DNA of 48,946 nt from an uncultured Candidatus Saccharibacteria bacterium (GTDB lineage: Bacteria; Patescibacteriota; Saccharimonadia; Saccharimonadales; JAGQNJ01), in the NCBI GenBank assembly GCA_964565615.1, contig CAZMFO010000004.1, forward strand, positions 1 to 48,946. Direction: 5' to 3'. This document shows, one piece after another, positions 1-17,534 of this stretch; within the stretch, counting starts at the first letter, position 1, and each line of letters starts with the position of its first letter. A program made the translations under genes and the position numbers. The notes under the pieces are model-generated. The model saw only the letters and a program-made list of their open reading frames with translations. It searched no databases and was not told where the DNA came from.

Positions 1-101
1 CTAAACATAACTATTCCACATAGTAAAGTGTCCACGATGTAGTGGGTAAGTGCATAGCAGTTAACTTTGATGGTATTTTTTCGTATAATAGTTTACTGAA
101 T

Positions 102-620
102 ATGCATAAACAAACAGCAATTGTTAAAGCCGAGCCATCTATAAAAGAAAACGCTAAGCTTGTGGGGATTTTTTTGTTTTTGATAATTTCTGCAACTTTA
201 ATGGGGGCAATGGGTAGTATCAATGCCGTAGAGTGGTTGCGCTGGTTTATGGGTGGGTTATTGATTATCTTTGGGGGTTTGAAGTTACTGGGTATAGAGG
301 TTTTTATTAAGGTGTTTCCTTTATTTGATTTACTAGCCAAACGGGTTCGTCCATATAAGTATATTTATCCATTTGTTCAAGTTTTGTTTGGAATATTTTT
401 TATAGTCGGAGCATGGCCACTCTTTCGCAATTTAGCTACAATCGTGATTGGGTTATCTGGTTTGATTGGAATGATAAATGTTGTAATCCAACGCGGAGCA
501 GTTCGTTTATCTTATCTTGGGACTATCTTACGATTACGATTTTCTACAGTTATATTAATAGAGAATACCCTAATGGTTTGTTTGAGTGTAATTATGCTGA
601 TTAGTGAGTTAATTGTTTAG
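102..620 (+). CDS. MauE/DoxX-family membrane protein
   Basis: Several hydrophobic helices, FxxFDLLAKR..Y.Y.YPF motif and a C-terminal 'LSYLGTILRLRFSTVILIEN' segment resembling MauE-like proteins. The ORF track starts at 42, but ATG 102 follows TATAAT (85-90) and is the preferred start. Confidence 0.6.
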   Translation: MHKQTAIVKAEPSIKENAKLVGIFLFLIISATLMGAMGSINAVEWLRWFMGGLLIIFGGLKLLGIEVFIKVFPLFDLLAKRVRPYKYIYPFVQVLFGIFFIVGAWPLFRNLATIVIGLSGLIGMINVVIQRGAVRLSYLGTILRLRFSTVILIENTLMVCLSVIMLISELIV

Positions 621-1423
621 TTGGTTAGATCTCGGCGAATAAAAACCATCCAGGAGAAAAGCAAACAACAAGCAATAATACCGACAAAAACACAAAGGTT
701 TATCCAATTGTATGTACCTGCTAAAATTTCTGCGGGTTTGTAGTAAGTAAAAGCAAAGAGTTTAGACGGCCATTTTAGCCAATTGGCAATATCAACTAAA
801 GATGCAATTATGTATCCACCAAGCGCATAAACTGTTGCAAGTCCGATGCTGGCAAATCTGGCTTTGCCAAAAGAGGTTACTAAAAACGCCAAGGCGCCAA
901 AAGACATCGCAAGCAGTATACTGGCAAGTGTAGCTAGGGCAATGTTAATTGAGTTAACATCTAGTTTTACAAGTTTAGCAAATGTTAATGTAACTATTCC
1001 AGAAACAGAACCAGTAATTAATATAATTATCACGCCACTGATATTTTTAGCCGTTAGCAAGACAGACCTTGATACTGGTCTGCTCAGTAGTAATTCTATG
1101 GTTTTTTCTTTTTCTTCGCGTGCCAGTAAGGAGCTACCTAATGATATTGCTAATATGCCAAGCAACATCGGCAACATTAAATAAAAAATTTGGCTACTTA
1201 AATAACCAATTGGAGATAAAAATTCGTTTGTGTCAGAAAAAAGTGCCATGGCAGAATCTGGAATTTCTGAAAATGCTTGCTCTAGTTGCTGTGATTGATC
1301 TCTAAACGATGGATAAAAAGCAAGATTTAACGAAATGAAAGCCGTAACCGCAAACCCCCACCACATTATTGACCAGCGTCTTTGCCATAGCTCCCATTTG
1401 ATTATACTTAGAATGGTTTTCAT
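617..1423 (-). CDS. ABC-2 type transporter permease
   Basis: About 6 TM segments, 'LLAREEKEKTIELLLSRPVSRS' motif, C-terminal 'F.RRDL'. Overlaps the upstream ATPase gene by 4 bp. Confidence 0.85.
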   Translation of the reverse strand: MKTILSIIKWELWQRRWSIMWWGFAVTAFISLNLAFYPSFRDQSQQLEQAFSEIPDSAMALFSDTNEFLSPIGYLSSQIFYLMLPMLLGILAISLGSSLLAREEKEKTIELLLSRPVSRSVLLTAKNISGVIIILITGSVSGIVTLTFAKLVKLDVNSINIALATLASILLAMSFGALAFLVTSFGKARFASIGLATVYALGGYIIASLVDIANWLKWPSKLFAFTYYKPAEILAGTYNWINLCVFVGIIACCLLFSWMVFIRRDLTN

Positions 1424-2331
1424 CTTTTACTGTCCGTTTCATAATATTTCATGAATTCTTCTTCAAGGTCCAGCTCTTTACTGCTTAAGCTATAAATTTT
1501 TTGCTTAGATAAAAATAAAAGCAGGGGCGATAAATTACCACGAACATGAATAACAAAAGAATTTTGGTTAGTTTTTGATACTTTCTTAACGCCGGAGACT
1601 CTTTTAATGTCTACAGCTGTTACATTGGTCTTAAAACTTACATTGAATGTTTGCGCGGCCTCATCTTTTAGATCGGCAATATTATGCTCGTTTACCAATT
1701 TGCCATCTTTTATGATGCCAATGCGATTACAAATCTTTTTAACTTCTGTTAGATTGTGGCTACTAATAAAGATTGTTACGCCTCCGCTACTAAGTTTCTT
1801 TACTAGATCATAAAAAGTTTCTTGCATTAGTGGATCTAGGCCGTCGGTTGGTTCGTCTAAAATTAAAAGATCAGGTTCGTGCATACAGGCCTGAATTATG
1901 CCAAGTTTTTGTTTGTTGCCCTTAGAAAGCTCGCCAATTTTTTTATTGATGTTTGGCTTAAATAGGCTAATTAGTTCTTTGTAAAAATTTTTGTTTTTGT
2001 TTGGTTGAATTTCTGACATATAACTAAAAAATTGTTTGGTAGTCATTTTGTCATAGGCGGTAAAATCGCCAGAGAGATAGCCGATTGATTTTTTAATTTG
2101 TACAGAGTCTTTTACTATGTCTTTTCCAAATATTGTCGCGTCGCCTTCGGTGGGTTGCAAAAAGTTAAGAAGTGTTCTAATAGTGGTAGATTTTCCAGCA
2201 CCGTTTGGACCTAAAAAACCATAAACATCACCCTTATTTACTTTAATGCTCAAAGCTTTAAGGGCGTAGGGTGACTTTTCGCTATAGCGTTTACTAAGTT
2301 TGTTGCATTCTATAACGATCTCTGTTCGCAT
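1420..2331 (-). CDS. ABC transporter ATP-binding protein
   Basis: Walker A GPNGAGKST, signature-like LSKGNKQK, Walker B LLILDEPT, H-loop SSH. Start moved from 2415 to ATG 2331, which lies 6 nt after TACAAT (2343-2338). Confidence 0.92.
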   Translation of the reverse strand: MRTEIVIECNKLSKRYSEKSPYALKALSIKVNKGDVYGFLGPNGAGKSTTIRTLLNFLQPTEGDATIFGKDIVKDSVQIKKSIGYLSGDFTAYDKMTTKQFFSYMSEIQPNKNKNFYKELISLFKPNINKKIGELSKGNKQKLGIIQACMHEPDLLILDEPTDGLDPLMQETFYDLVKKLSSGGVTIFISSHNLTEVKKICNRIGIIKDGKLVNEHNIADLKDEAAQTFNVSFKTNVTAVDIKRVSGVKKVSKTNQNSFVIHVRGNLSPLLLFLSKQKIYSLSSKELDLEEEFMKYYETDSKR

Positions 2332-2403
2332 GATCATATTGTAATACATAATTAGCGAATCCAACTTATTTAGTTTACGGCGGGCTAGGGTTATTATGTA
2401 TTT

Positions 2404-3104
2404 ATGGCTAGACAAAAGACAAATAGTGAAACAGGGGTATTATTTGTAATTTTTTTTGCTTGTATTAACTTCGGTGTTTGCAAAACATGGTTTTAGTGAT
2501 CTAAAAGAATGGTTATTTTTTACGATATAATTTGCATTTATCAAGTAATTTAATGCTACTCATTACTCAATCTGGCACAATAGTGCAGTAGCTGGCGGAG
2601 TTTTAGTGCTGTTTTTCACTAAACGAAAAAAAAGCAAGTTTTGCAATTATTTTTAACTGGTTATTTAACATACATTTTTTGTAGCGTTATTAAAAGAACT
2701 AATTGCCAGACCAAGACCAAACGAAGTACTGCCAAACATATATTCTTTTGATATGGATGCATTTGGGTACGGGTTTCCGTCTGGGCATACGGCATTAGTA
2801 GTTGTTACTACGCTACTTTTTTTTGGAATTTTTTGGTAATGCGGGCAAAGCCTTTTTGATTGTTTTAGTGGCTTTAGTTGGTTTATCTAGGTTGACTTTA
2901 GGTGTTTATGCGCCACTAGATATTTTAAGTGGCGCTTTACTTGGTGCGCTTACTTATGTATTAATTAGGGGGCTTGTAAATTTAATAAAAAGGTTGAAAA
3001 ATCTTAATATCAAGCTTATGATTATAATTAGGAAGTGTGAGGCTTCCATACTAACCTCGGCAGTATGTCGAGGTTTATGGTTTAAGGCATTATTTATGTC
3101 CTAG
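2404..3104 (+). pseudogene. Frameshifted PAP2-family phosphatase pseudogene
   Basis: PAP2 motifs are present but split over frames: KELIARPRP (from 2693), FPSGH (2774-2788), SRLTLGVYAPLD (catalytic His appears as Tyr). About 6 frame changes are needed, mostly at T6/T8/A8 runs. Confidence 0.8.
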
Positions 3105-3125
3105 TTTCTGGTAAAATAGACTCTA

Positions 3126-3896
3126 GTGAGTATTATTTTATACATAGTTGTATTTTCTTTAATTGGCAGTGTAGTTTCCTTGATGGGCGGATTGTTATTA
3201 TTGAGTAATCAAAAATTGGCAAAAAAGCTTGCATTTTTTGCTACGCCGTTTGCCGGCGGGGCATTGCTAGCGGCAGTTTTTACTGATTTGTTGCCAGAGG
3301 GTATTGAGTTTGCCTCTGCCTCTACAGTACTCCAAGCTACGCTATTTGGAATGGTAGCCTTCTTTCTGGCAGAGGGTGGTTTGCGGTGGTTTCATCATCA
3401 TCACGAACACCCAAACGAGGGGCAGGGTCGTCAGTCCTCTCCTATTTTAATAGTTATTGGTGATACACTTCATAATGCCCTAGATGGCGTAGCTATTGCT
3501 GCAAGTTTTATGATTAGCATTCCGACCGGCATAGTTACAACTCTAGCGGTTGCTTCTCACGAGATCCCTCAAGAAATTGGCGATTTTGGCTTACTGTTAA
3601 CAAAAGGTTATTCACGCCAAAAAGTATTGATAGCTAACTCGGTGAGCGCTTTAGCAACCTTAGTTTTTGCATTGCTTACCTATTTTCTGGGTTCTAGTGA
3701 GGCTTTGCCAGTCGGAGCTTTACTAGGGTTGAGTGCAGGATTTTTGCTTTACATATCTGCTAGCGATGTAATTCCGACTATTCATCTGTCAAAAAATAAA
3801 CACCTGACTTTTTACCAACAGTCCCTGTTATTTATGGCCGGTATTTTTATTGTTTCTTTGATGACCACTTTGGCTCATAGTTTTATTGTTGAGTAA
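3126..3896 (+). CDS. ZIP-family (ZupT-like) metal transporter
   Basis: HHHHEH loop, GDTLHNALDG and HEIPQEIGDF motifs, multiple TM helices. Confidence 0.9.
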   Translation: MSIILYIVVFSLIGSVVSLMGGLLLLSNQKLAKKLAFFATPFAGGALLAAVFTDLLPEGIEFASASTVLQATLFGMVAFFLAEGGLRWFHHHHEHPNEGQGRQSSPILIVIGDTLHNALDGVAIAASFMISIPTGIVTTLAVASHEIPQEIGDFGLLLTKGYSRQKVLIANSVSALATLVFALLTYFLGSSEALPVGALLGLSAGFLLYISASDVIPTIHLSKNKHLTFYQQSLLFMAGIFIVSLMTTLAHSFIVE

Positions 3897-3952
3897 GGAT
3901 GAGCATTAGCATTGCTCTAGTAAGATAAGCAACTTAGACATATAATGGAGGT

Positions 3953-5017
3953 ATGGATGTAATGACTGTGGTTGTGCTTCTGATTTTGGTTGCTGGTTTT
4001 GGTTTGGTTAGCTTTGTTTTAAGTCAAAAAATTAAAGAACTAAAACAAGAGTCGGCGACACAGTTACTTAAACAAGACATTACAAATCTTAATGACTCTT
4101 TGCAGAAAATCAATGATGGACTAAAGGATCATCTAACCTCTCGGCTTGATAGAAGTCAAGATCAGATTGCAAAACAATACGAGCAAAGCAACAAGATTAT
4201 TAAAGATGTTACTCAAAAACTAGAGAAGCTTGAAAACACCAACAAGAATGTCGGTGATATTGCTTCGGAATTAAAAACTTTACAAAATGTTTTGCAAAAC
4301 CCTAAACAACGCGGAGTGTTAGGGGAGTATTATCTGGCACAGATATTAGAAAATGTTTTACCGGTTGGAGCGTTTGAGCTACAGTACAAAATTGCCGATG
4401 GTTTAGTTGTTGACGCAGTTATAAAGATGGACGATAGATTGCTCCCACTAGACAGCAAGTTTTCATTAGAGAACTATAATAGGTTACTCGACGCTGATGT
4501 TGGTGAGCGAGAGAGACTGGTTAAGGCTTTTAGAGAGGATGTAAAAAAGCGTATTGATGAAACCGCCAAATATATTAAACCCACAAGACAGACACTAGAT
4601 CAAGCTTTGATGTTTATCCCCAGTGAGGCTATTTATTATGATTTACTGGCGAACAAAGTTGGTCTAAGTGGCGTGAACGGCCGTAACTTATTGCAATATG
4701 CCCTTGAAAAAAAGGTGACTATAGTTGGTCCTAGTACCTTATCTGCTATGCTTCAGACAATTGCACAAGGCTTGCGAAGTGTAGAAATCCATAAAGATAC
4801 CGAAAAAATTCGCAAAAATATCGAGCAATTGCAAAAGCATTTGCTTGCCTATAACGCATATTATGTTAAGTTGGGGAACTCTTTGGGGGCAACAGTCGGA
4901 CACTATAACAATGCCAGCAGAGAGCTTGGCAAAATAGATAAAGACATTGTTAAAATTGGTGGTGGAGAAACTGCAATAGAACCCTTACTATTAGATAGAC
5001 CCAGCCAAGAGTTATGA
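3953..5017 (+). CDS. rmuC: DNA recombination protein RmuC
   Basis: N-terminal TM plus coiled coil, NPKQRGVLGE, 'LPLDSKF', 'MFIPSEAIY' and 'GPSTL' RmuC motifs. Confidence 0.92.
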   Translation: MDVMTVVVLLILVAGFGLVSFVLSQKIKELKQESATQLLKQDITNLNDSLQKINDGLKDHLTSRLDRSQDQIAKQYEQSNKIIKDVTQKLEKLENTNKNVGDIASELKTLQNVLQNPKQRGVLGEYYLAQILENVLPVGAFELQYKIADGLVVDAVIKMDDRLLPLDSKFSLENYNRLLDADVGERERLVKAFREDVKKRIDETAKYIKPTRQTLDQALMFIPSEAIYYDLLANKVGLSGVNGRNLLQYALEKKVTIVGPSTLSAMLQTIAQGLRSVEIHKDTEKIRKNIEQLQKHLLAYNAYYVKLGNSLGATVGHYNNASRELGKIDKDIVKIGGGETAIEPLLLDRPSQEL

Positions 5018-5065
5018 TAGAGTACGGGCGAGGCTATACTAAAATAAATATGGTATAATAACTTA

Positions 5066-5266
5066 ATGAAGGATATTTTTGAGGTTCCGGAAGGGGATGT
5101 CGATCCATTTTTGGATAAGATCGTCATGAGTGTGCCGTTGGGTTGTTTGGCAATTGTTGTTGATAGGTATACAGAAGCTATTCGTCAAGGGGCTACTCCT
5201 GAAGACGCTTATTTTATGGTTTCTTCCCCCGAGAGTAATTATTTTTTTGAGCAATCAAGTCAATAG
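5066..5266 (+). CDS. Small hypothetical protein (66 aa)
   Basis: ATG lies 6 nt after an extended -10 (TGGTATAAT 5051-5059). Acidic composition. Overlaps the 3' end of the convergent glycoside hydrolase gene by 53 bp. Confidence 0.5.
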   Translation: MKDIFEVPEGDVDPFLDKIVMSVPLGCLAIVVDRYTEAIRQGATPEDAYFMVSSPESNYFFEQSSQ

Positions 5267-6560
5267 TGAGCGAAGCTGTCCATGAAAAGTTTTGAGCACC
5301 AGCTGGTGTCCCATTTTTGGGCGAAAAGTATTCGTTTATACCCGACTTAGCAACCATACCTAGAGTTTGTTGGCGTATTTGCTCTGCTTCGTCATCAAAA
5401 CCGTAGCGTTTCAGCCCATCAATAATTAACCAGTTGGTGTTTATCCATGATGGGCCTTGCCAATAGAGGTGCTCCTTAAACCATTCGGAGTTTACGGGTA
5501 CTGTGGGGACAGGGTAGCTAGTGCCAAACAGGTGTTTTGATTTAAGAAGCTCAACTAGTATTTTGGCTCGTTCTTTTGGAATACTCCCCGCATATAGTGG
5601 TAAGAGTGTTCCGATTGAGCTTACTTTGATGAGCTTGCCCGTTGTTGTATTTTTTGAATAGTATTGGCTGGTATAAGGATCCCACAACTGTTCTAGACTG
5701 GCCTTAGTGTTCTCTATGTTAGTCGTAAGATTTTTGGGTAGTTTTATATTTAAAGATCTAGCGATATTAGACAAGTGGCTATTCGCCCGAATTAAGATGG
5801 AGTTGTAGTTGATATCAATGATACTGATGCGTGTAGGGTTTTTATTAGGGCCGACCTTGTAATGGTTGCGCAGTAATTTGCGTTGCATTGAATAAAGCAG
5901 TAAACCGTCTATTGTACTAAGTCGTTGGCCCGGTAAGACTAACTTGCGATCACTCCTAAAGTAAGTCAGCAAAGCATCTAACCGCGTTGCTTTAATCGTT
6001 TTTATCCAAAATGGCATACCGTAATTATTGATTTCGGCTATCCACGGAGGCGTGTTGTCTAGACCGGTTTCCCATGGGTGTACCAAACTGATTAGCCCCG
6101 ATTTATCAAAATCGCGTTCTTTATAAAGCCATTTATGAAAGGCAAGGAGAGCGGGGAACATTTTCTTGTACCATATTAAGCGCTCTTCTTTTGTAAGAAG
6201 TTCGCCAACTCGAACAACGGCTTCTGCTAACATCGGTGGTTGAGTAATACCACTGGTTGCATAATCATCAGGAGATTGGATTGATAGACTACTTTGCCAA
6301 AAACCGGCACTCTGTTTGCCAATAAAATCGCGAGTTAAAATCATATGTGGTAGCATACCGTTATGCCATTGTCCGCGCAAAAGACTTATCAGTTCTTGTT
6401 GAGCTCTTGGTACATCATAGTGGCGTTGCCCGATGGCAACAAAACAACTATCCCATAGCCACTGATGAGGGTACAGTCCCGGAGCGGGTATTATGTGACT
6501 CCCGCGGTCGTTATTCGTTAAAACATCTATACATTTTTGATACAGTTCATCGTCCGACAT
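5214..6560 (-). CDS. GH63/MGH1-like (alpha/alpha)6 glycoside hydrolase
   Basis: YPHQWLWDSCF, SGITQPP, HPWETGLDNTP, YWQGPSWINTNWL and EYFSP..G.GA.NFSWTA motifs typical of mannosyl/glucosylglycerate hydrolase-like enzymes. Confidence 0.8.
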   Translation of the reverse strand: MSDDELYQKCIDVLTNNDRGSHIIPAPGLYPHQWLWDSCFVAIGQRHYDVPRAQQELISLLRGQWHNGMLPHMILTRDFIGKQSAGFWQSSLSIQSPDDYATSGITQPPMLAEAVVRVGELLTKEERLIWYKKMFPALLAFHKWLYKERDFDKSGLISLVHPWETGLDNTPPWIAEINNYGMPFWIKTIKATRLDALLTYFRSDRKLVLPGQRLSTIDGLLLYSMQRKLLRNHYKVGPNKNPTRISIIDINYNSILIRANSHLSNIARSLNIKLPKNLTTNIENTKASLEQLWDPYTSQYYSKNTTTGKLIKVSSIGTLLPLYAGSIPKERAKILVELLKSKHLFGTSYPVPTVPVNSEWFKEHLYWQGPSWINTNWLIIDGLKRYGFDDEAEQIRQQTLGMVAKSGINEYFSPKNGTPAGAQNFSWTASLTIDLIAQKNNYSRGKKP

Positions 6561-6591
6561 TATGTCATTAGTATAACCTGCTTATGATTTA

Positions 6592-7125
6592 TTAGTAACT
6601 GTATTGCCAACCGGGTTGCCATTGCTTTTTGGGTCGCCAATTTTCTTTAATTACTTGATCCCACGATTTTCCGTTTATGATAACCTCCATTGCTAGCTGT
6701 GTTGCTTCGTGGCCAATAATTGCTATGTAGTCGTTCTTATGAAAAAGCTTCATGTCGTTTAAGAACGATTTAATGCGCACTTCCACTTCTTTGTAGGATT
6801 CTCCATTAGGATAGGGTATATCAACGAATTTATGCATATCACTTTTGAATTTTTTATTCTGACCATCAAATTGACCATAGTTTGCTTCGCGAAGACGCCA
6901 ATCGTATCGCAACGGGTGAGTATTACCAAAGCCAAGCTTGGCTGATTCAATAGCTCTTTGGAGATCTGAACAATAAACAATGCTAAATGATTTATCTTTT
7001 ATTAATTTTGGCAATTCTTTTGCTTGATTAATTCCTTCTGGTGATAATTTTCCCGGTAACCAACCAGTTGCGATATGATTTTTATTGTCTACAGTAGTGC
7101 TATGAGCAAAAAATACTATTTTCAT
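6592..7125 (-). CDS. Histidine phosphatase (phosphoglycerate mutase) family protein
   Basis: N-terminal AHS (variant of RHG), SDLQRA, LREANYG.FDG, GESY and a later GH. Confidence 0.85.
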   Translation of the reverse strand: MKIVFFAHSTTVDNKNHIATGWLPGKLSPEGINQAKELPKLIKDKSFSIVYCSDLQRAIESAKLGFGNTHPLRYDWRLREANYGQFDGQNKKFKSDMHKFVDIPYPNGESYKEVEVRIKSFLNDMKLFHKNDYIAIIGHEATQLAMEVIINGKSWDQVIKENWRPKKQWQPGWQYSY

Positions 7126-7126
7126 A

Positions 7127-7624
7127 TTATTTGAAGTTAGTGAAGTTGATAGGAAAATCGAAGCCCTTATTTTTTAGCAAATGCATTGCAGACTGGAGTT
7201 CGTCTTTTTTAGGGCTTGTAATTCGAACAGCCTCGCCCTGTATTTGTGCTTTTATCTTTGGGAGTTCATCACGGAGTAGTTTGGTAATTTGTTTAGCTCT
7301 GTCTTGATTAAGCCCCTGAATAAACGGCAAGTTTTTTGTAGATTTTAAATTTGCGACGATTGGCTCTTGGCTAATATCTAATACTTTCTGATCAATATTA
7401 CGACTAGCAAGTTTTTTGCGAATAATCTCAATTATCGCCTCTAGCTGGTAGTCACTATTACCAGTAATTTTGAATCCAGTTTTACTAGTGTCCAACCATT
7501 CAATACTCGCTGGAGTACCCTTAAAGTCATACCGATTAGTAATTTCTCTTTGAACCTGATCAAGCACATTGTTCATTTCGGCTTTGTCAAACTCACTAAC
7601 TACATCAAAACTAAACTGTGCCAT
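7127..7624 (-). CDS. yajQ: YajQ-family cyclic di-GMP/nucleotide-binding protein
   Basis: SFDVVSEFD, EI.NRYDFKG, AQIQGEAVRITSPKKDELQ and F.NFK motifs. Confidence 0.92.
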   Translation of the reverse strand: MAQFSFDVVSEFDKAEMNNVLDQVQREITNRYDFKGTPASIEWLDTSKTGFKITGNSDYQLEAIIEIIRKKLASRNIDQKVLDISQEPIVANLKSTKNLPFIQGLNQDRAKQITKLLRDELPKIKAQIQGEAVRITSPKKDELQSAMHLLKNKGFDFPINFTNFK

Positions 7625-12695: not shown

Positions 12696-12725
12696 TTGAC
12701 AGGCAAATTACTCCTGTGCTAACAT
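12696..12725 (+). promoter_or_regulatory. Sigma70-type promoter of the phage-tail-like cassette
   Basis: TTGACA (12696-12701), 18-nt spacer ending in TGC, then TAACAT (12720-12725). Confidence 0.55.
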
Positions 12726-12776
12726 AAAGCTAATACTTATTTAGATAGCAGGGGTACATAATAAACTAATACATCT

Positions 12777-13337
12777 ATGGCTAGACTACCAATACCGGGA
12801 CAAGACGGAGGAGTATGGGGCAACATTCTTAATGAATATCTATCTGTATCTCACGAATCAGATGGCACTATTAAACCAAGTGCTATACCACCATCTTCCG
12901 GAGCTACAGGCGCCACAGGAGTTCAAGGAGCTACAGGTGCACAAGGCCCAGCTGGCCCTCAAGGAGCAACCGGAAGCTTAGGAGTAACGGGCGCAACAGG
13001 TGCAACCGGCATTGCTGGCCCCCAAGGAGCAACAGGAGTACAGGGCGCTACCGGTTCTGGATCTACTGGAGCTACAGGAGTTCAAGGCTCAACCGGAGTA
13101 CAGGGCGCAACCGGCCCTCAAGGCGCTACCGGCCCGGGAGTAATCTCTGGTGGTACTACTGGTCAAGTATTAGCTAAGGCTTCAAACCTAGATAACGATA
13201 CGGTATGGACAACCGTTCCTAGCAATCCGGTAACATCAGTCAACGGCAAAACTGGCCCAACTGTTGTACTGACCGCACCCGATGTAGGAGCCCAACCCGC
13301 AGGTTATTCAAGATCATTTTTATTAGGAGGTATGTAG
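12777..13337 (+). CDS. Collagen-like fibre protein with phage tail-fibre-type motifs
   Basis: 17+9 Gly-X-Y triplets, then '[17 protein letters not shown]' and '[19 protein letters not shown]' motifs that I recognise from phage tail fibres. Confidence 0.75.
12900..13139 (+). repeat. Collagen-like Gly-X-Y repeat (GAT/GVQ/GPQ-rich)
   Basis: Residues 42-121: 17 triplets, a GS interruption, then 9 triplets. Confidence 0.95.
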
Positions 13338-13338
13338 T

Positions 13339-13668
13339 ATGGCAACAACCGTAAAAGTATTAGGGCAATCAGCTCCGTCAGCAAACACAGACACCACTCT
13401 GTATACAGTACCGGCATCTACTTCAACAATTGCCAGTTCGGTAATTGTATCTAACAGAGGAGCTACTAGTGCTACATTTAGAGTAGCTGTTCGCGTTGGG
13501 GGTGCCCCTTTAGCGAACCAGCATTACATCTTTTATGACATAGCCATTCCTGCTAAAGATTCTTTTGTCGCCACAATTGGAGGAACCTTCTCGGCTGGCG
13601 ATGTCATTACCGTTAGAGCATCAACAGCAGACCTTTCGTTTAATCTATTTGGGGAAGAAACTGCGTGA
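13339..13668 (+). CDS. Phage-type small beta-rich protein
   Basis: SD aggagg. 'MATTVKVLGQSAPSA.TDTTLYTVPAST.TI.SS..VSNRG..ATFRVAVR...YDI.IPA.DS...G.T..AGDVITVRAS...SFNLFGEE' resembles a small protein family I recall from tailed-phage structural regions. Confidence 0.7.
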   Translation: MATTVKVLGQSAPSANTDTTLYTVPASTSTIASSVIVSNRGATSATFRVAVRVGGAPLANQHYIFYDIAIPAKDSFVATIGGTFSAGDVITVRASTADLSFNLFGEETA

Positions 13669-14966
13669 GCATAAGGTGGGCATCAGATACGCCACAAAGC
13701 ACTCGGCTTGTTGGGCAACCTCAAAGTAGTACTAATGATGACTCTTGGGTAAGACCAGCCGATTGGCTTACATTACCAACTGTTAACATAGGTGACGAAA
13801 AGGTGGTGCTGCTGGTCGCTGTGTGGGACCTGTCGCACAACTGGTTGGCGTTCGCCTGTACGGGCGCTTACACGGTGGATTGGGGGGACGGTTCCGCACC
13901 GGCGAACGTCGCGTCGGGTGTGAAGGCGTCACATGATTTCGCGTGGGCTGATATCGATTCGGGCACTTTGAGTGTGCATGGGTATCGGCAGGCGATCGTG
14001 ACGATCACCCCGCAAGCCGGGCAGCATCTGACGTCGTTGTCGTTCTCTCAGCCGCATGTGGGTGCCGGGGGTGGGGTGTCGAACGGGACGTTGGAAGCCG
14101 TGTTGGCGGTCCCGTATGCGACATCGTTCACGTTCTACAACAGTGCCACGGTGGCGATGGACAACCGCTATTTGGAGCATGTGTCGATCGTGGACGCACC
14201 GTCGCTGATAACGGCGTACCAGATGTTCGCGGGCATGAATGCATTGCAGAAGGTGGATGCACCGGATGCGACAGGCGCATGGACCAGCACAATCACCAAC
14301 TTCTCCCAGATGTTCAGCAACTGTTCTTCCCTGCGTGAGGCCCCGTTGTTGAACACGTCCGCGGGAACCACCTTCTCCCAGATGTTCCGCAACTGTTATT
14401 CGTTGCGTGAGGTTCCGGCGTTGAACACCACAGCGGGAACCAACTTCTCCGGCATGTTCAACAGCTGTTCTTCCCTACGTGAGGTCCCGTTGTTGAACAC
14501 CGCCGCAGGAACCAACTTCTCCGAAATGTTCCGCAGCTGTTATTCCCTGCGCGAGGTTCCGGCGTTGATCACCGCTGCGGGAACCAACTTCGTCAACATG
14601 TTCAGCGGCTGTTCTTCTCTGCGTGAGGTCCCGGCGTTTAACACGTCCGCGGGAACCAACTTCTCCGGCATGTTCTACGCCTGTTCTTCCCTGCGCGAGG
14701 TCCCGTTGTTGAACACCGCAGCGGGAACCAGCTTCTCCCAGATGTTCGGCAATTGCAACAGTTTGCATTCTGCGCCGCTCGCAGGCACCCGATACAGCAT
14801 CAACTACACCAACTGCTACCTCGACGCCGCCGACCTCGACGCCATCTACACAGCGTTGGGCACCGCAGCCGGAGCACAAACAATCACCGTCACAGGCAAC
14901 CCCGGTATCGGCAGCGACGACCCGTCAATAGCGACCGCCAAAGGCTGGACCGTAACCGGCTCGTAA
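13665..14966 (+). CDS. BspA/DUF285-like leucine-rich-repeat protein, phage-tail-associated type
   Basis: N-terminal WVRPADWLTLP, PKD-like 'YTVDWGDG', 24-aa repeats (MF.xCxSLREVP..NT.AGTNF), C-terminal 'TITVTGNPG...DPSIATAKGWTVTG'. GTGA overlap with the upstream gene. Confidence 0.8.
   Translation: MSIRWASDTPQSTRLVGQPQSSTNDDSWVRPADWLTLPTVNIGDEKVVLLVAVWDLSHNWLAFACTGAYTVDWGDGSAPANVASGVKASHDFAWADIDSGTLSVHGYRQAIVTITPQAGQHLTSLSFSQPHVGAGGGVSNGTLEAVLAVPYATSFTFYNSATVAMDNRYLEHVSIVDAPSLITAYQMFAGMNALQKVDAPDATGAWTSTITNFSQMFSNCSSLREAPLLNTSAGTTFSQMFRNCYSLREVPALNTTAGTNFSGMFNSCSSLREVPLLNTAAGTNFSEMFRSCYSLREVPALITAAGTNFVNMFSGCSSLREVPAFNTSAGTNFSGMFYACSSLREVPLLNTAAGTSFSQMFGNCNSLHSAPLAGTRYSINYTNCYLDAADLDAIYTALGTAAGAQTITVTGNPGIGSDDPSIATAKGWTVTGS
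14301..14762 (+). repeat. 72-bp (24-aa) tandem repeat, 6 full copies plus 1 partial
   Basis: Units start at 14301, 14373, 14445, 14517, 14589, 14661 and 14733 (exact 72-bp period). Confidence 0.97.
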
Positions 14967-14996
14967 CAGCGAATTAGTTTAGTACAATACAGGCTA

Positions 14997-15024
14997 TTGA
15001 CATTATAAAAAAAGTTCTTATAAT
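14997..15024 (+). promoter_or_regulatory. Consensus sigma70 promoter with no downstream CDS
   Basis: Exact TTGACA (14997-15002), 16-nt spacer, exact TATAAT (15019-15024). Predicted +1 near 15031. Confidence 0.8.
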
Positions 15025-15030
15025 CAGATT

Positions 15031-15556
15031 AGTTTGGTAGAGTCTTAATTTAGATTCCTAAACTGTACATTGACAGATGTAAGATACACATTAGGCAATG
15101 ACTACAGGTATTACAAATGTAATGATTGTAGCCATTGTCTAATAATTTTAGCTATAGATCTAAAGTCTGGAGATTCTGTAGTTCCACCGCTACAGAAAAC
15201 ATACGGAACCGCTCCTCCGTATGTCTCCAGCGCAAGTTGGGTGTCTGCCGTTTTTGGCAGAACCGCCTCCCCGCCAGCGGTTGTGGGAATCACGCACCCA
15301 ACTTGCAAGTTCTGGAACCCCATCAAGAGAGTCAACCAAATAGGTTGAGCCATTTAGGTAGGTTCCAAATAGATCGTGGGCCCCACGGCTACTGGTTCGC
15401 CAGTTCCGCCTTCCACCCATAAGCCGTGGGGTCCACATAGGCGTAAATTGCGCTAAAATGCAAAAATTTGTTGAGAGGCGTTTTTTAAGTTGAGGACTTC
15501 TTGTTCTCCTTTTCGCTACTCCAAATTACTATCTTACATCTGTCATCTTTTTCTTT
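15031..15556 (+). ncRNA. Candidate large structured non-coding RNA (about 525 nt), family not recognised
   Basis: Promoter directly upstream. 5' hairpin starts at the predicted +1. Perfect 16-bp closing helix 15071-15086/15530-15545, more than 12 nested helices, UUCG tetraloop, G-U pairs favouring the + strand, GC about 60% in the core versus about 23% in the flank, U-tract 15546-15556. Confidence 0.8.
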
Positions 15557-15767
15557 AGTTTGATATTAGCTCACGAATTGTCGTGGTTTAATATAAAACT
15601 ATTGTTCTTAGCAAGATGAGAAAATAACCAGATTGTCTTTACCAAAGAGGTCTTACGATTTGTGGTTGTTTTGGTGGATCACTAGCCTTCTAAAAAACAT
15701 CAAAAACAATCGGCTCTTGGCTACCCGACTTTTTGTTTGATTAAAGAGGGTGTAAACTATTGTTAAA

Positions 15768-17534
15768 GTGAAGTACCTAATCAATATCTTAAAACTGTCA
15801 TCTTCTCTATGGAGATACTACTTAGCCATTAGCCTATTAAGTGTTTTGGTGGCCCTATCTGGGCTGGTTACTCCTTTGCTTTCTGGGCGAGCAATTGATC
15901 TATTAAGGTCTGGCACAGATAGTTTATCAACCCTGCTGGTGATTTCTGTCTTGATATTTTTAGCGGACATATTTTCTACTTTGGTGTCTAACTATGGAGG
16001 CTATTTAGGTGATGTGATGACATCTAAGCTAGAGCGTATTTTGAGTACACGGTACTACCAGCACTTGCTACAGTTGCCACAGACCTATTACGATAGCGAA
16101 CTTTCTGGCAAGATAATAAATCGCTTAAATAGGTCCATTACTCAAATAGGCAATTTTGTCCATATGTGGTGTAATAACTTTTTGCAGTTTGTTTTTAGCA
16201 CCATTTTGTCATTAGGCATTATTGCTTACTTTAGCTGGCCAATAGCTTTACTTTTGTTTTTGCTGTACCCAATTTATGTATTTATGACCATTAAAACTAG
16301 CGGAAAGTGGTTAAAATATCAGGCAAAAATTAACAAAAATTGGGATATCGCCTCTGGCCGATTTGCCGAGAGTATTACCCAGATTAAGGTAGTAAAAAGT
16401 TTTGTTCGCGAGGCTTCTGAACTGCGACATTTTGACAAATACTACAAAAAAATTACCAGTATTGTTTACCCACAGTCTAGACTTTGGCATAACCGCGATA
16501 TTCAGCGTCGCTTGATATTGAATATCATTTTTTTGGGAGTGTACGCGTTGATTTTTTATCAGGCTACCCAAAATCAATATACGCCCGGGCAGGCTGTAAC
16601 CTTAATTTTGTATGCTATGCAAATTAGAATTCCAATTTTTACCATTAGTTTTTTGGTAGATAACACACAGCGAGCTATTGCCGATAGCAAAGATTATTTT
16701 GATGTTATGGCTATTAAGTCGCAAATTTTAGACCTACCAAATGCGACCACGCTTAAAGTTAGCTCTGGAGGCATTGAGTTTAAGGATGTAAGCTTCTCGT
16801 ACGGCAACGCACTAGTTTTAAACAAAATCTCTCTTAAAATTAAGCCCTCATCAAAAATTGCTCTGGTTGGCGAGAGTGGAGAGGGTAAAACCACTTTAAC
16901 AAATTTGATAATGCGTTTTTACGAACCGAACTCGGGACAAATCATCATTGATGGGCAAGATATAGCTACGGTAACACAAAGTAGTTTACGACAGAACATT
17001 GGTGCGGTTTTTCAGGAATCGGCATTATTTAGTGGAACGATAAAAGAGAACATTTCATACGGTAGGCCAAACGCTAAACAAAAAGATATAGAAGAAGCAG
17101 CCAAAATGGCAAATGCACATCAGTTTATTAGCGAACTAAAAAAGGGTTACGATACAGAGATAGGCGAGCGTGGCTTAAAGCTCTCTGGCGGGCAAAAACA
17201 ACGAATAGCTATTGCTAGAGCACTTCTTAAAGACGCCCCGATACTAATTCTTGATGAGGCGACCAGTAGCTTAGATAGCAAGAGTGAGCGAATGGTGCAA
17301 GAAGCCCTTGAGAGGCTGATGGAGAACAGGACAACCATTGTTGTGGCTCATCGTTTAAGTACTATACAAAATGTTGATACCATAGTTACGCTCAAGAAAG
17401 GCAAGATAGACGAGGTTGGCACACCAGCGGAGCTAGCAAAATCGGGCGGTATCTATTCTCGCTTACTAGAGTTGCAACGCGAGGGTGTTTCTTCTGGCAA
17501 AGAGCGTTTACAAAAGTTTGATATCGCCAGCTAG
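15768..17534 (+). CDS. ABC exporter, fused permease/ATPase (MsbA/multidrug-like)
   Basis: N-terminal TM domain, GESGEGKT, LSGGQKQR, ILILDEATSSLD and AHRLST. Confidence 0.93.
   Translation: MKYLINILKLSSSLWRYYLAISLLSVLVALSGLVTPLLSGRAIDLLRSGTDSLSTLLVISVLIFLADIFSTLVSNYGGYLGDVMTSKLERILSTRYYQHLLQLPQTYYDSELSGKIINRLNRSITQIGNFVHMWCNNFLQFVFSTILSLGIIAYFSWPIALLLFLLYPIYVFMTIKTSGKWLKYQAKINKNWDIASGRFAESITQIKVVKSFVREASELRHFDKYYKKITSIVYPQSRLWHNRDIQRRLILNIIFLGVYALIFYQATQNQYTPGQAVTLILYAMQIRIPIFTISFLVDNTQRAIADSKDYFDVMAIKSQILDLPNATTLKVSSGGIEFKDVSFSYGNALVLNKISLKIKPSSKIALVGESGEGKTTLTNLIMRFYEPNSGQIIIDGQDIATVTQSSLRQNIGAVFQESALFSGTIKENISYGRPNAKQKDIEEAAKMANAHQFISELKKGYDTEIGERGLKLSGGQKQRIAIARALLKDAPILILDEATSSLDSKSERMVQEALERLMENRTTIVVAHRLSTIQNVDTIVTLKKGKIDEVGTPAELAKSGGIYSRLLELQREGVSSGKERLQKFDIAS

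Follow-up and report, generated by a model that had tools for sequence, protein, structure and literature searches.

An in-frame high-GC mosaic in the tip gene of a predicted phage-type fibre cassette on a Saccharibacteria chromosome

The tail-fibre and receptor-binding genes of phages P2, Mu, P1, lambda and the T-even group swap their distal segments, and tip swapping involving gp37 and gp38 is familiar from T4-type phages. Phage-like fibres with chimeric, exchangeable tips also occur in the bacterium Bdellovibrio bacteriovorus, where the MAT proteins are single chains of ~1,000 amino acids with beta-helix shafts and have been shown on the surface of the predator (Caulton et al. 2024, PMC10769870). 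Here we describe a gene that resembles the mosaic phage tail-fibre genes in having a conserved proximal and an exchangeable distal part, joins that coincide with conserved motifs or with the borders of genes, partners that differ in base composition, and a fibre module that sits beside a collagen-like or fibre shaft gene. It lies in a stretch of 48,946 nucleotides (referred to below as the window) from an uncultured Candidatus Saccharibacteria bacterium (contig CAZMFO010000004.1 of assembly GCA_964565615.1, positions 1 to 48,946 of the forward strand), and is the last of three cassette genes, all of which are read on the plus strand, as are the parts of the gene defined below. The window is chromosomal and of low GC content (41%), and is assigned to Candidatus Saccharibacteria by its pheT gene, which is 74% identical to that of the nearest species representative.

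The gene in question (13665–14966; 433 amino acids, GTG start) encodes a protein with leucine-rich repeats (LRRs) and is referred to here as the tip gene. It is an in-frame compositional mosaic, the 3′ ~1.17 kb of which has a high-GC, foreign origin. The GC counts per 60 nucleotides made in a first-pass annotation of the window were reproduced exactly: GC content is 46.7% and then 43.3% across 13681–13800, rises to 61.7% and then 71.7% across 13801–13920, lies at 53–62% in the repeats, reaches 66.7% at 14821–14880 and is 23.3% at 15001–15060. At a scale of 1 kb the high-GC block stands at 0.55–0.58, and every other 1-kb interval of the 48.9 kb is at or below 0.446. The GC content of third codon positions (GC3), read in the frame of the gene, is 0.31 for codons 1–45 (13665–13799) and then 0.77, 0.78 and 0.74 for 13800–14279, 14280–14759 and 14760–14966, respectively. 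The corresponding values are 0.28 for the collagen-like gene and 0.31 for the small gene that precede it in the cassette, 0.35 for pheT and 0.39 for the neighbouring ABC transporter gene, such that the two upstream cassette genes are host-like in GC3, in line with the codon usage with which they had been credited.

When the small gene and the tip gene were analyzed by maximum likelihood, the best single change point in GC3 fell at the codon whose first nucleotide is 13800 (gain in log-likelihood, 49.6 nats), and fourfold-degenerate sites differed between the N-terminal part and the high-GC sequence directly following it (p=1.4e-6). The step is abrupt, occurring within one or two codons, and sits six codons past a WVRPADWLTLP motif, in agreement with a breakpoint that had been placed just past that motif. 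At the opposite end, the high-GC DNA stops ~5 nucleotides or less from the stop codon (14966), as the annotation had likewise stated. The shift in codon flavour that it had described within the block was also recovered: a second change point, from G-ending to C-ending codons, was located at 14274 (gain of 21.3 nats; Fisher p ~1e-8), where the sign of the GC skew flips (~14274), and the ratio of G to C at fourfold sites reverses from 61:15 before ~14280 to 21:40 in the repeats and 6:23 in the tail. The notion of a swap in more than one piece is therefore borne out, with at least two compositional pieces in the high-GC region.

The tip gene can thus be divided into a low-GC 5′ part (13665–13799), which encodes a disordered linker (MSIRWAS...) and the first folded residues (WVRPADWLTLPTVNIGDE); a high-GC piece A (13800–14273; GC3 0.77, with a frequency of G at third positions, G3, of 0.53), which encodes a beta-sandwich domain (‘AYTVDWGDGS...GYRQAIVTITPQAGQ’) and the first irregular repeats; and a high-GC piece B (14274–14966; GC3 0.74–0.78, with a corresponding frequency of C, C3, of 0.49–0.61), which encodes the LRRs and, within the same interval, a C-terminal cap (‘...QTITVTGNPG..DDPSIATAKGWTVTGS’). 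The DUF285/BspA-type LRRs occupy 14295–14752, where Tandem Repeats Finder (TRF) detected 6.4 tandem units of 72 nucleotides.

Pfam gathering scores were used as the cut-off for membership in the DUF285/BspA families, and both profiles were exceeded by the tip protein (PF03382, 66.5 bits against a cut-off of 25, E=2e-18; PF13306, 39.7 bits against a cut-off of 27.7). The protein displays the full architecture of a large family, 2,306 homologues of which were found, comprising a variable N-terminal linker, a WVRPxDWLTLP motif, a domain of ~140 amino acids (‘AYTVDWGDGS...GYRQAIVTITPQAGQ’), DUF285/BspA LRRs and a cap whose conserved form in the family reads ‘...QTITVTGNWG..DDPSIATAKGWTVTG’. In the AlphaFold2 (AF2) model of the protein (predicted local distance difference test score, pLDDT, of 87.6), residues 1–24 are disordered and residues 31–45 are well ordered within the folded domain. 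A fold search returned LRR-solenoid matches, which in the PDB were only generic LRR receptors. The segment that contains the join is conserved in low- and high-GC members of the family, and reads WERPGDWLALPTVNNGDQK in the phage-like contig L172. Because the compositional step lies inside this conserved segment and the residues immediately before it (31–45) are folded, the join is located within one fold, as expected from recombination between homologous genes. The earlier proposal of a recombinational swap of the C-terminus is consistent with this arrangement, in which an in-frame mosaic is joined in a conserved motif region.

The genes surrounding the join appear to form a widespread phage-type fibre cassette that consists of a shaft, a 109-amino acid adaptor and a variable tip. 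The first cassette gene (12777–13337; GC3 0.28) encodes a collagen-like fibre protein of 186 amino acids with G-X-Y repeats (PF01391, E=7e-11, with matches to PHROG tail-fibre families) that ends in ...SFLLGGM, and the second (13339–13668; GC3 0.31) encodes the 109-residue jelly-roll adaptor or knob, with a stop codon that overlaps the GTG start of the tip gene. The adaptor was confidently modelled by AF2 as an eight-stranded jelly roll (pLDDT 96.4); its fold matches, to small capsid proteins of viruses and the fibre tip domain of Bdellovibrio Bd2133, were weak. More than 476 relatives of the adaptor were found on IMG/VR viral contigs, and its family comprises 2,423 cluster representatives in a library clustered at 50% identity, some of which are tandemly doubled or fused at either end to larger proteins. 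The adaptor in the window is 48–64% identical to homologues in phage phiPsal1 and on IMG/VR contigs; in phiPsal1 (a cultured Pontimonas phage; L176, MG835450.1) the homologue is gp021, which is 48% identical and annotated as a ‘putative virion structural protein’.

On viral contigs the adaptor gene is always followed, at a distance of 0–17 nucleotides, by a hypervariable gene encoding 72–2,107 amino acids, whose products are of DUF285, glycine-rich, Ig-like or other classes and begin with M-[AST]-[IV]-[RK] (MSIRWAS in the window; MSIRSVS, MAIRRAS and MSVRNVA in homologues). The gene upstream of the adaptor carries a C-terminal FLLMGA/FLLGGM motif in 25 of the 26 viral or phage loci examined. 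The same gene order is found next to T4-type gp13/gp14/gp15 and terminase genes on contig L002, and in the loci of the nearest relatives of the tip gene (L172, L173 and L174) the adaptor gene overlaps the tip start by 4 nucleotides. The cassette also has high-GC members (L085, L101, L154, L172 and L173), and a Woesebacteria metagenome-assembled genome (MAG) contains a similar lone cassette among chromosomal genes. Altogether, module loci were identified at 12777–13668 of the window and in L002, L090–L169, L172–L174 and L176. No description of this three-part module was found in the literature searched. The likeness to exchange of tail-fibre tips, which had been suggested from the tip gene, is thereby extended to its context: a tail-fibre-type module with an exchanged distal gene.

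A different arrangement was observed on contig L001 (ENA ERZ15185986 NODE_182, positions 2–6670), where four tandem paralogues of DUF285-type tips neighbour genes of the sortase and ferric-reductase type and are not interrupted by any adaptor gene, in an expanded array of bacterial-looking context.

We considered several rival explanations for the composition of the tip gene. The source of the window is a metagenome assembly, and the 72-nucleotide repeats and the motifs are common to many high-GC homologues in the same samples, so that the end of a high-GC contig might have been joined wrongly to a low-GC Saccharibacteria contig via motif or repeats. However, the sequence is present in many public runs (from sludge, bioreactor, biofilm, groundwater and soil), and the 5′ junction is crossed by independent single-run contigs from at least five studies and different years, with 0–7 differences. 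These include X1 (a contig of 48.8 kb), X2 (13544–13915, 0 differences), X3 (12767–14356), X8 (13526–14064), X9 (13739–14057) and X10 (13723–13888). The junction is also contained in a Logan contig (L170, matching 12767–14356 at 99.6%) and in the NCBI MAG contig JADLFH010000106.1 (GCA_020845705.1; L171, matching 12903–14489 at 98.6%); sequencing depth is even on either side of it. The 3′ edge is crossed by a contig from X3 (14647–16500), and both the reading frame and the predicted fold are unbroken. Misassembly, which the first-pass annotation had named as something to be checked, is therefore extremely improbable. Nor do we find it easy to credit an intrinsic origin of the composition, through amino-acid content, codon selection in the family or GC-biased conversion of the LRRs, with no foreign ancestry. 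Amino-acid content does raise the local GC content of the collagen-like gene (to 0.55–0.60 at 12860–13160), and repeats may homogenise through conversion; yet the GC3 of that gene is still 0.28, the step in the tip gene is one of GC3 beyond total GC and is completed over one or two codons, and the highest GC3 lies in the beta-domain, which is not repeated. Members of the family instead track the GC3 of their own genomes, whether low or high: homologues on low-GC contigs (L001, 46% GC; L002, 32%) and on high-GC contigs (L172, 67%; L173, 63.5%) are each flat and neighbour-like in GC3, which rejects the possibility, also raised at the outset, that the profile is an old property of the family. The difference between tip and adaptor GC3 in the window (+0.41) is the largest positive value among 62 comparator cassettes, the internal GC3 step is the sharpest of the 62 with the exception of L095, and the switch from G3 to C3 (p=7e-10 in the window) is absent from L172 (p=1) and L173 (p=0.78). 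An intrinsic origin is thus very unlikely.

Targeted diversification of the tip gene, by a diversity-generating retroelement or by gene conversion from silent cassettes, would be another route to a variable C-terminus. Retroelement-based diversification is common in bacteria of the candidate phyla radiation (CPR), often acting on C-terminal binding domains, and the LRR units do vary between strains. Nevertheless, no reverse transcriptase is found among the annotated open reading frames of the 48.9-kb window, which also lacks a template repeat and any duplicate of part of the gene; the foreign block measures 1.17 kb and not the ~100 nucleotides of a variable region, and differences between strains consist of gains, losses and shuffles of whole units, not of adenine-specific substitutions; we consider it scarcely plausible that such a system produced the mosaic. 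Misassembly, GC-biased conversion and retroelement-type diversification were each rejected, on the spanning contigs, on the GC3 pattern, and on the lack of reverse transcriptase or template, respectively.

The two high-GC pieces have different nearest relatives. That of the beta-domain is P0103, encoded on L172 (a contig of 67% GC; 50% identical), and that of the cap is P0034, encoded on L173 (63.5% GC; 73.5% identical), both of which are phage-like contigs with the same adaptor-plus-tip arrangement. The segments of the tip gene have different best matches, the low-GC segment comprising 45 codons only. Because the closest relatives of the two high-GC pieces are on different contigs and the codon preferences of the pieces differ, at least two donors or two events are indicated. 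Searches for a donor returned a best identity of 36–66% among 5.8 billion proteins, seven loci (all at or below 59% identity) in a scan of JGI metagenomes with the beta-domain, and one locus (59% identity) in IMG/VR; blastn against cultured phages gave no match, nor did tblastn of a neighbouring gene from L172 against cultured phages. The sole hint of a donor is circumstantial, in that an actinobacterium is the host of the one cultured phage that carries a close homologue of the adaptor. The donor that had been envisaged at first, an actinobacterial host or its phage of high GC content, is thus upheld in its high GC content but not in its actinobacterial source, as the nearest relatives (50–73% identity) are on anonymous phage-like contigs of 63–67% GC.

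We believe that the best explanation for these observations is that the tip gene is a three-part recombinational mosaic of a phage-type fibre cassette, later exchanged as a unit, and assign this reading a probability of roughly 0.78. Codons 1–45 would have the composition of a low-GC cassette, and the sequence from codon 46 to the stop codon would derive from one or more high-GC members of the family, with a crossover in the conserved WVRPxDWLTLP...GDxK segment that preserved both frame and fold. The high-GC part would itself combine a G3-rich beta-domain with a C3-rich LRR array and cap, brought together through at least two exchanges or donors, and the finished chimeric gene would then act as an exchangeable unit between shaft/adaptor cassettes. 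We infer that the mechanism was homologous or short-homology recombination, and a phage or mobile intermediate is the presumed place of formation.

Several points weigh against this reading. No donor sequence was found in the searches above, the best protein identity to the high-GC part being 50–73%, and at the crossover site, homology to the nearest high-GC relative is confined to short runs of nucleotides. The low-GC part available for phylogenetic incongruence consists of only 45 codons, 24 of which encode disordered residues. No obvious signal peptide is present in the three cassette proteins, as judged by direct reading of their sequences; virion proteins normally lack one, and the finding speaks against a classical surface adhesin. 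Expression data were sought, and no RNA runs were found. Finally, the linkage within the soil run described below (X14) was reconstructed from overlapping short unitigs at 4–11x depth and not from one contig.

Comparison with relatives places the whole cassette as a discrete insertion. The same ABC transporter gene comes next after pheT in 28 relatives, all of which lack the cassette; the genes flanking it are collinear in relatives, with the three cassette genes alone missing, and 14995–15081 of the window aligns to the sequence directly after pheT in L003 and L056. We therefore conclude that 12653–~14990 is a 2.3-kb, three-gene insertion, the right edge of which falls at 14967–14996, given that the post-pheT region of relatives aligns from ~14995. 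The high-GC DNA of the tip gene ends at the right edge of the entire insertion, beyond which the chromosome has no homologous sequence to recombine with. In soil run X14, the N-terminus of the shaft (12775–12857) and the adaptor (13300–13693) are 82% and 82.5% identical to the window, respectively, and the upstream and downstream flanks are unlike those of the window; the tip gene, in contrast, differs at 1 of 339 nucleotides across the GC step (13707–14045, 99.7% identical) and at 2 positions across 14075–14272. This contrast in identity indicates that the chimeric tip gene, including ~90 nucleotides of its low-GC part, moved recently between diverged low-GC cassettes, with an exchange breakpoint that, judged from the alignment, lies near the start of the tip gene. 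Taken together, the position of the right edge and the X14 copy make formation of the mosaic in a phage or mobile context at least as likely as formation in the chromosome. A swap in this genome, as the first-pass annotation implied, goes further than these observations: the chimeric gene already resides in a different soil cassette at 99.7% identity and its high-GC DNA ends at the edge of the insertion, both of which are better accommodated by a mosaic assembled on a phage or mobile element and transferred later.

A closely related account, which differs from the mosaic reading in place and timing only, is that the mosaic formed long ago in phages and that the chromosome acquired the finished cassette or carries it as a prophage remnant, in which case no gene of the host itself would have received the high-GC DNA. 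The exact coincidence of the high-GC end with the right edge, which leaves no downstream homology for a double crossover, and the occurrence of the same chimeric gene with other flanks in X14 both point in this direction, as do tip genes of discordant GC content on viral contigs. Among the latter, the adaptor of L128 has a GC3 of 0.81 and its tip one of 0.37, L095 steps internally from 0.15 to 0.41, and the tip of L101 drifts from 0.75 to 0.42; these cassettes indicate that exchange across GC classes recurs in the module. On the other hand, no phage genome with this allele was recovered, and the window outside the cassette holds no integrase, att site or other phage gene, only 12-nucleotide repeats at the cassette ends. 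The high-GC block furthermore shows no amelioration, and the mosaic is therefore unlikely to be very old within low-GC carriers. Overall, we judge import of the finished cassette to fall a little short of even odds.

Within the population carrying the mosaic, the only common differences are the gain, loss and shuffling of 72-nucleotide LRR units, which would represent its fastest mode of change. Strains that are otherwise identical differ across 14295–14752 in the number and order of these units, with X2 and X10 carrying one extra unit and X12 one fewer, and relative to the window L171 has 21 differing sites within 14388–14486 and only 1 elsewhere. Runs X20, X33, X34 and X25–X29 represent merely sparse coverage of the same strain. 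In run X12, a variant of the beta-domain (13948–14315) that is 93% identical to the window is present at 3–5x depth beside exact copies of the low-GC backbone, and might represent either another allele or a donor relative.

The cassette is flanked by pheT, an RNA-like element and the ABC transporter gene, and is not located inside a cluster of phage structural genes; the other genes of the window have housekeeping functions (DnaE, GatA/B, UvrB, GAPDH and a PilB-type ATPase). Upstream of the cassette lies a promoter-like site on the plus strand (12696–12725; TTGACA, an 18-nucleotide spacer and TAACAT, with an extended TG), assigned by its match to the consensus alone. Twelve-nucleotide inverted repeats, TAATAAACTAAT (12759–12770) and ATTAGTTTAGTA (14973–14984), border the cassette, one lying immediately before its first start codon and the other immediately after its last stop codon, and the right repeat recurs directly at the start of the RNA-like element as ATTAGTTTGGTA (15028–15039). 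Such repeats may be due to chance in AT-rich DNA. No explanation of the locus emerged from Rfam and tRNA scans, which covered the window and also 14960–15770 separately.

The RNA-like element itself (14997–15560, plus strand) is a high-GC region free of open reading frames (ORFs) that follows a perfect TTGACA-16-TATAAT promoter (14997–15024) and is closed by a 15-basepair long-range helix between GACAGATGTAAGATA (15072–15086) and TATCTTACATCTGTC (15530–15544). It is kept downstream of pheT in four other Saccharibacteria loci (L003, L004, L005 and L056), and RNAalifold predicted 105 basepairs, 47 of which display compensatory changes. A covariance model of its 5′ 122 nucleotides also matches sequences downstream of pheT in L038, L059, L028, L011, L015 and L024. 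No Rfam family matched the element, which is a candidate for a new structured RNA of ~500 nucleotides or for a long leader of the ABC transporter gene.

The predicted fold and the context of the tip protein suggest that it is a ligand-binding LRR solenoid mounted on a beta-sandwich base, with a probable function in binding a receptor or ligand. For the cassette as a whole, the readings include an inert remnant or recombination reservoir, and a domesticated attachment device with a putative role in the cell, in analogy to the phage-like chimeric MAT fibres of Bdellovibrio. Under the last of these, the Saccharibacteria epibiont would have domesticated a phage fibre cassette as an attachment organelle, retargeted by tip genes from phages of high-GC hosts; we regard this as a speculative and improbable scenario. 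The lone position of the cassette at a housekeeping locus, the many sludge, biofilm and groundwater samples, the lone Woesebacteria MAG cassette and the rapid turnover of LRR units would all fit it. Its further corollary, that receptor specificity has been borrowed from a phage to recognise a host cell, for example among the Actinobacteria of activated sludge, appears equally doubtful to us. If the cassette is expressed, it becomes a candidate for the recognition of partner cells by Saccharibacteria, and its high-GC tip would then indicate the partner or the phages infecting it; an unexpressed cassette would be a small phage remnant recording gene flow between the low- and high-GC phage pools of wastewater communities. 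In either case, a widespread and apparently intact phage fibre module is lodged in the streamlined chromosome of an obligate epibiont.

Viewed against described systems, the tip protein is closest in its repeats to the DUF285/BspA-type LRR surface proteins (PF03382 and PF13306; repeat TIGR02167 in NCBIfam), with which it shares a repeat region scoring above curated cut-offs and an AF2 model in the form of an LRR solenoid with repeats of ~24 residues. It differs from them in a distinct sub-architecture (linker, WVRPxDWLTLP motif, TVDWGDG beta-domain, LRRs and ATAKGWTVTG cap), in having no signal peptide or anchor, and in its tie to the gene for a 109-amino acid adaptor. The Bdellovibrio MAT fibres offer a likeness of another kind, namely a bacterium living on bacteria that has phage-like fibre proteins, and the model of the window's adaptor weakly matches the Bd2133 tip (8ok3; template modelling, TM, scores of 0.55/0.51, E=1e-3). 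Unlike the MAT proteins, the window has three small separate genes, a collagen-like shaft, no beta-helix and no export signal, and the cassette therefore falls outside the definition of a MAT fibre.

The gene order of the cassette is reproduced in phage phiPsal1, in which gp020 ends in ...LMLMGG and is followed by the 109-amino acid homologue (gp021) and then by an unannotated ORF beginning (M)SIRSLS. The annotated gp022 in this region (7340–7540) appears to be in the wrong frame; a TTG-start ORF, (M)SIRSLSRSTIQDF...GGFKYHTFT, lies directly after gp021 and belongs to the glycine-rich class of tips. The tip of phiPsal1 thus differs in class from the DUF285 tip of the window, and its copy of the module is embedded in a tail module that is complete, downstream of the genes for the tape measure and the tail fibre. 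Homologous genes are also carried by Prochlorococcus phages P-SSM2 and P-SSM5, and the module occurs in siphovirus-, myovirus- and podovirus-like contexts.

The tip gene is an in-frame module exchange of textbook quality, across a large gap in GC content and with its crossover inside a folded domain, and the finished chimera shows evidence of spread between diverged cassettes. The phenomenon is of a kind well known from phage fibre genes, of which this is an unusually clean instance in an unusual host context. Unlike those mosaics, the module here is a lone three-gene insertion that has housekeeping genes of a CPR bacterium as its neighbours and no further phage gene beside it, and its GC3 contrast of 0.31 to 0.77 is the most extreme positive value of the 62 cassettes compared.

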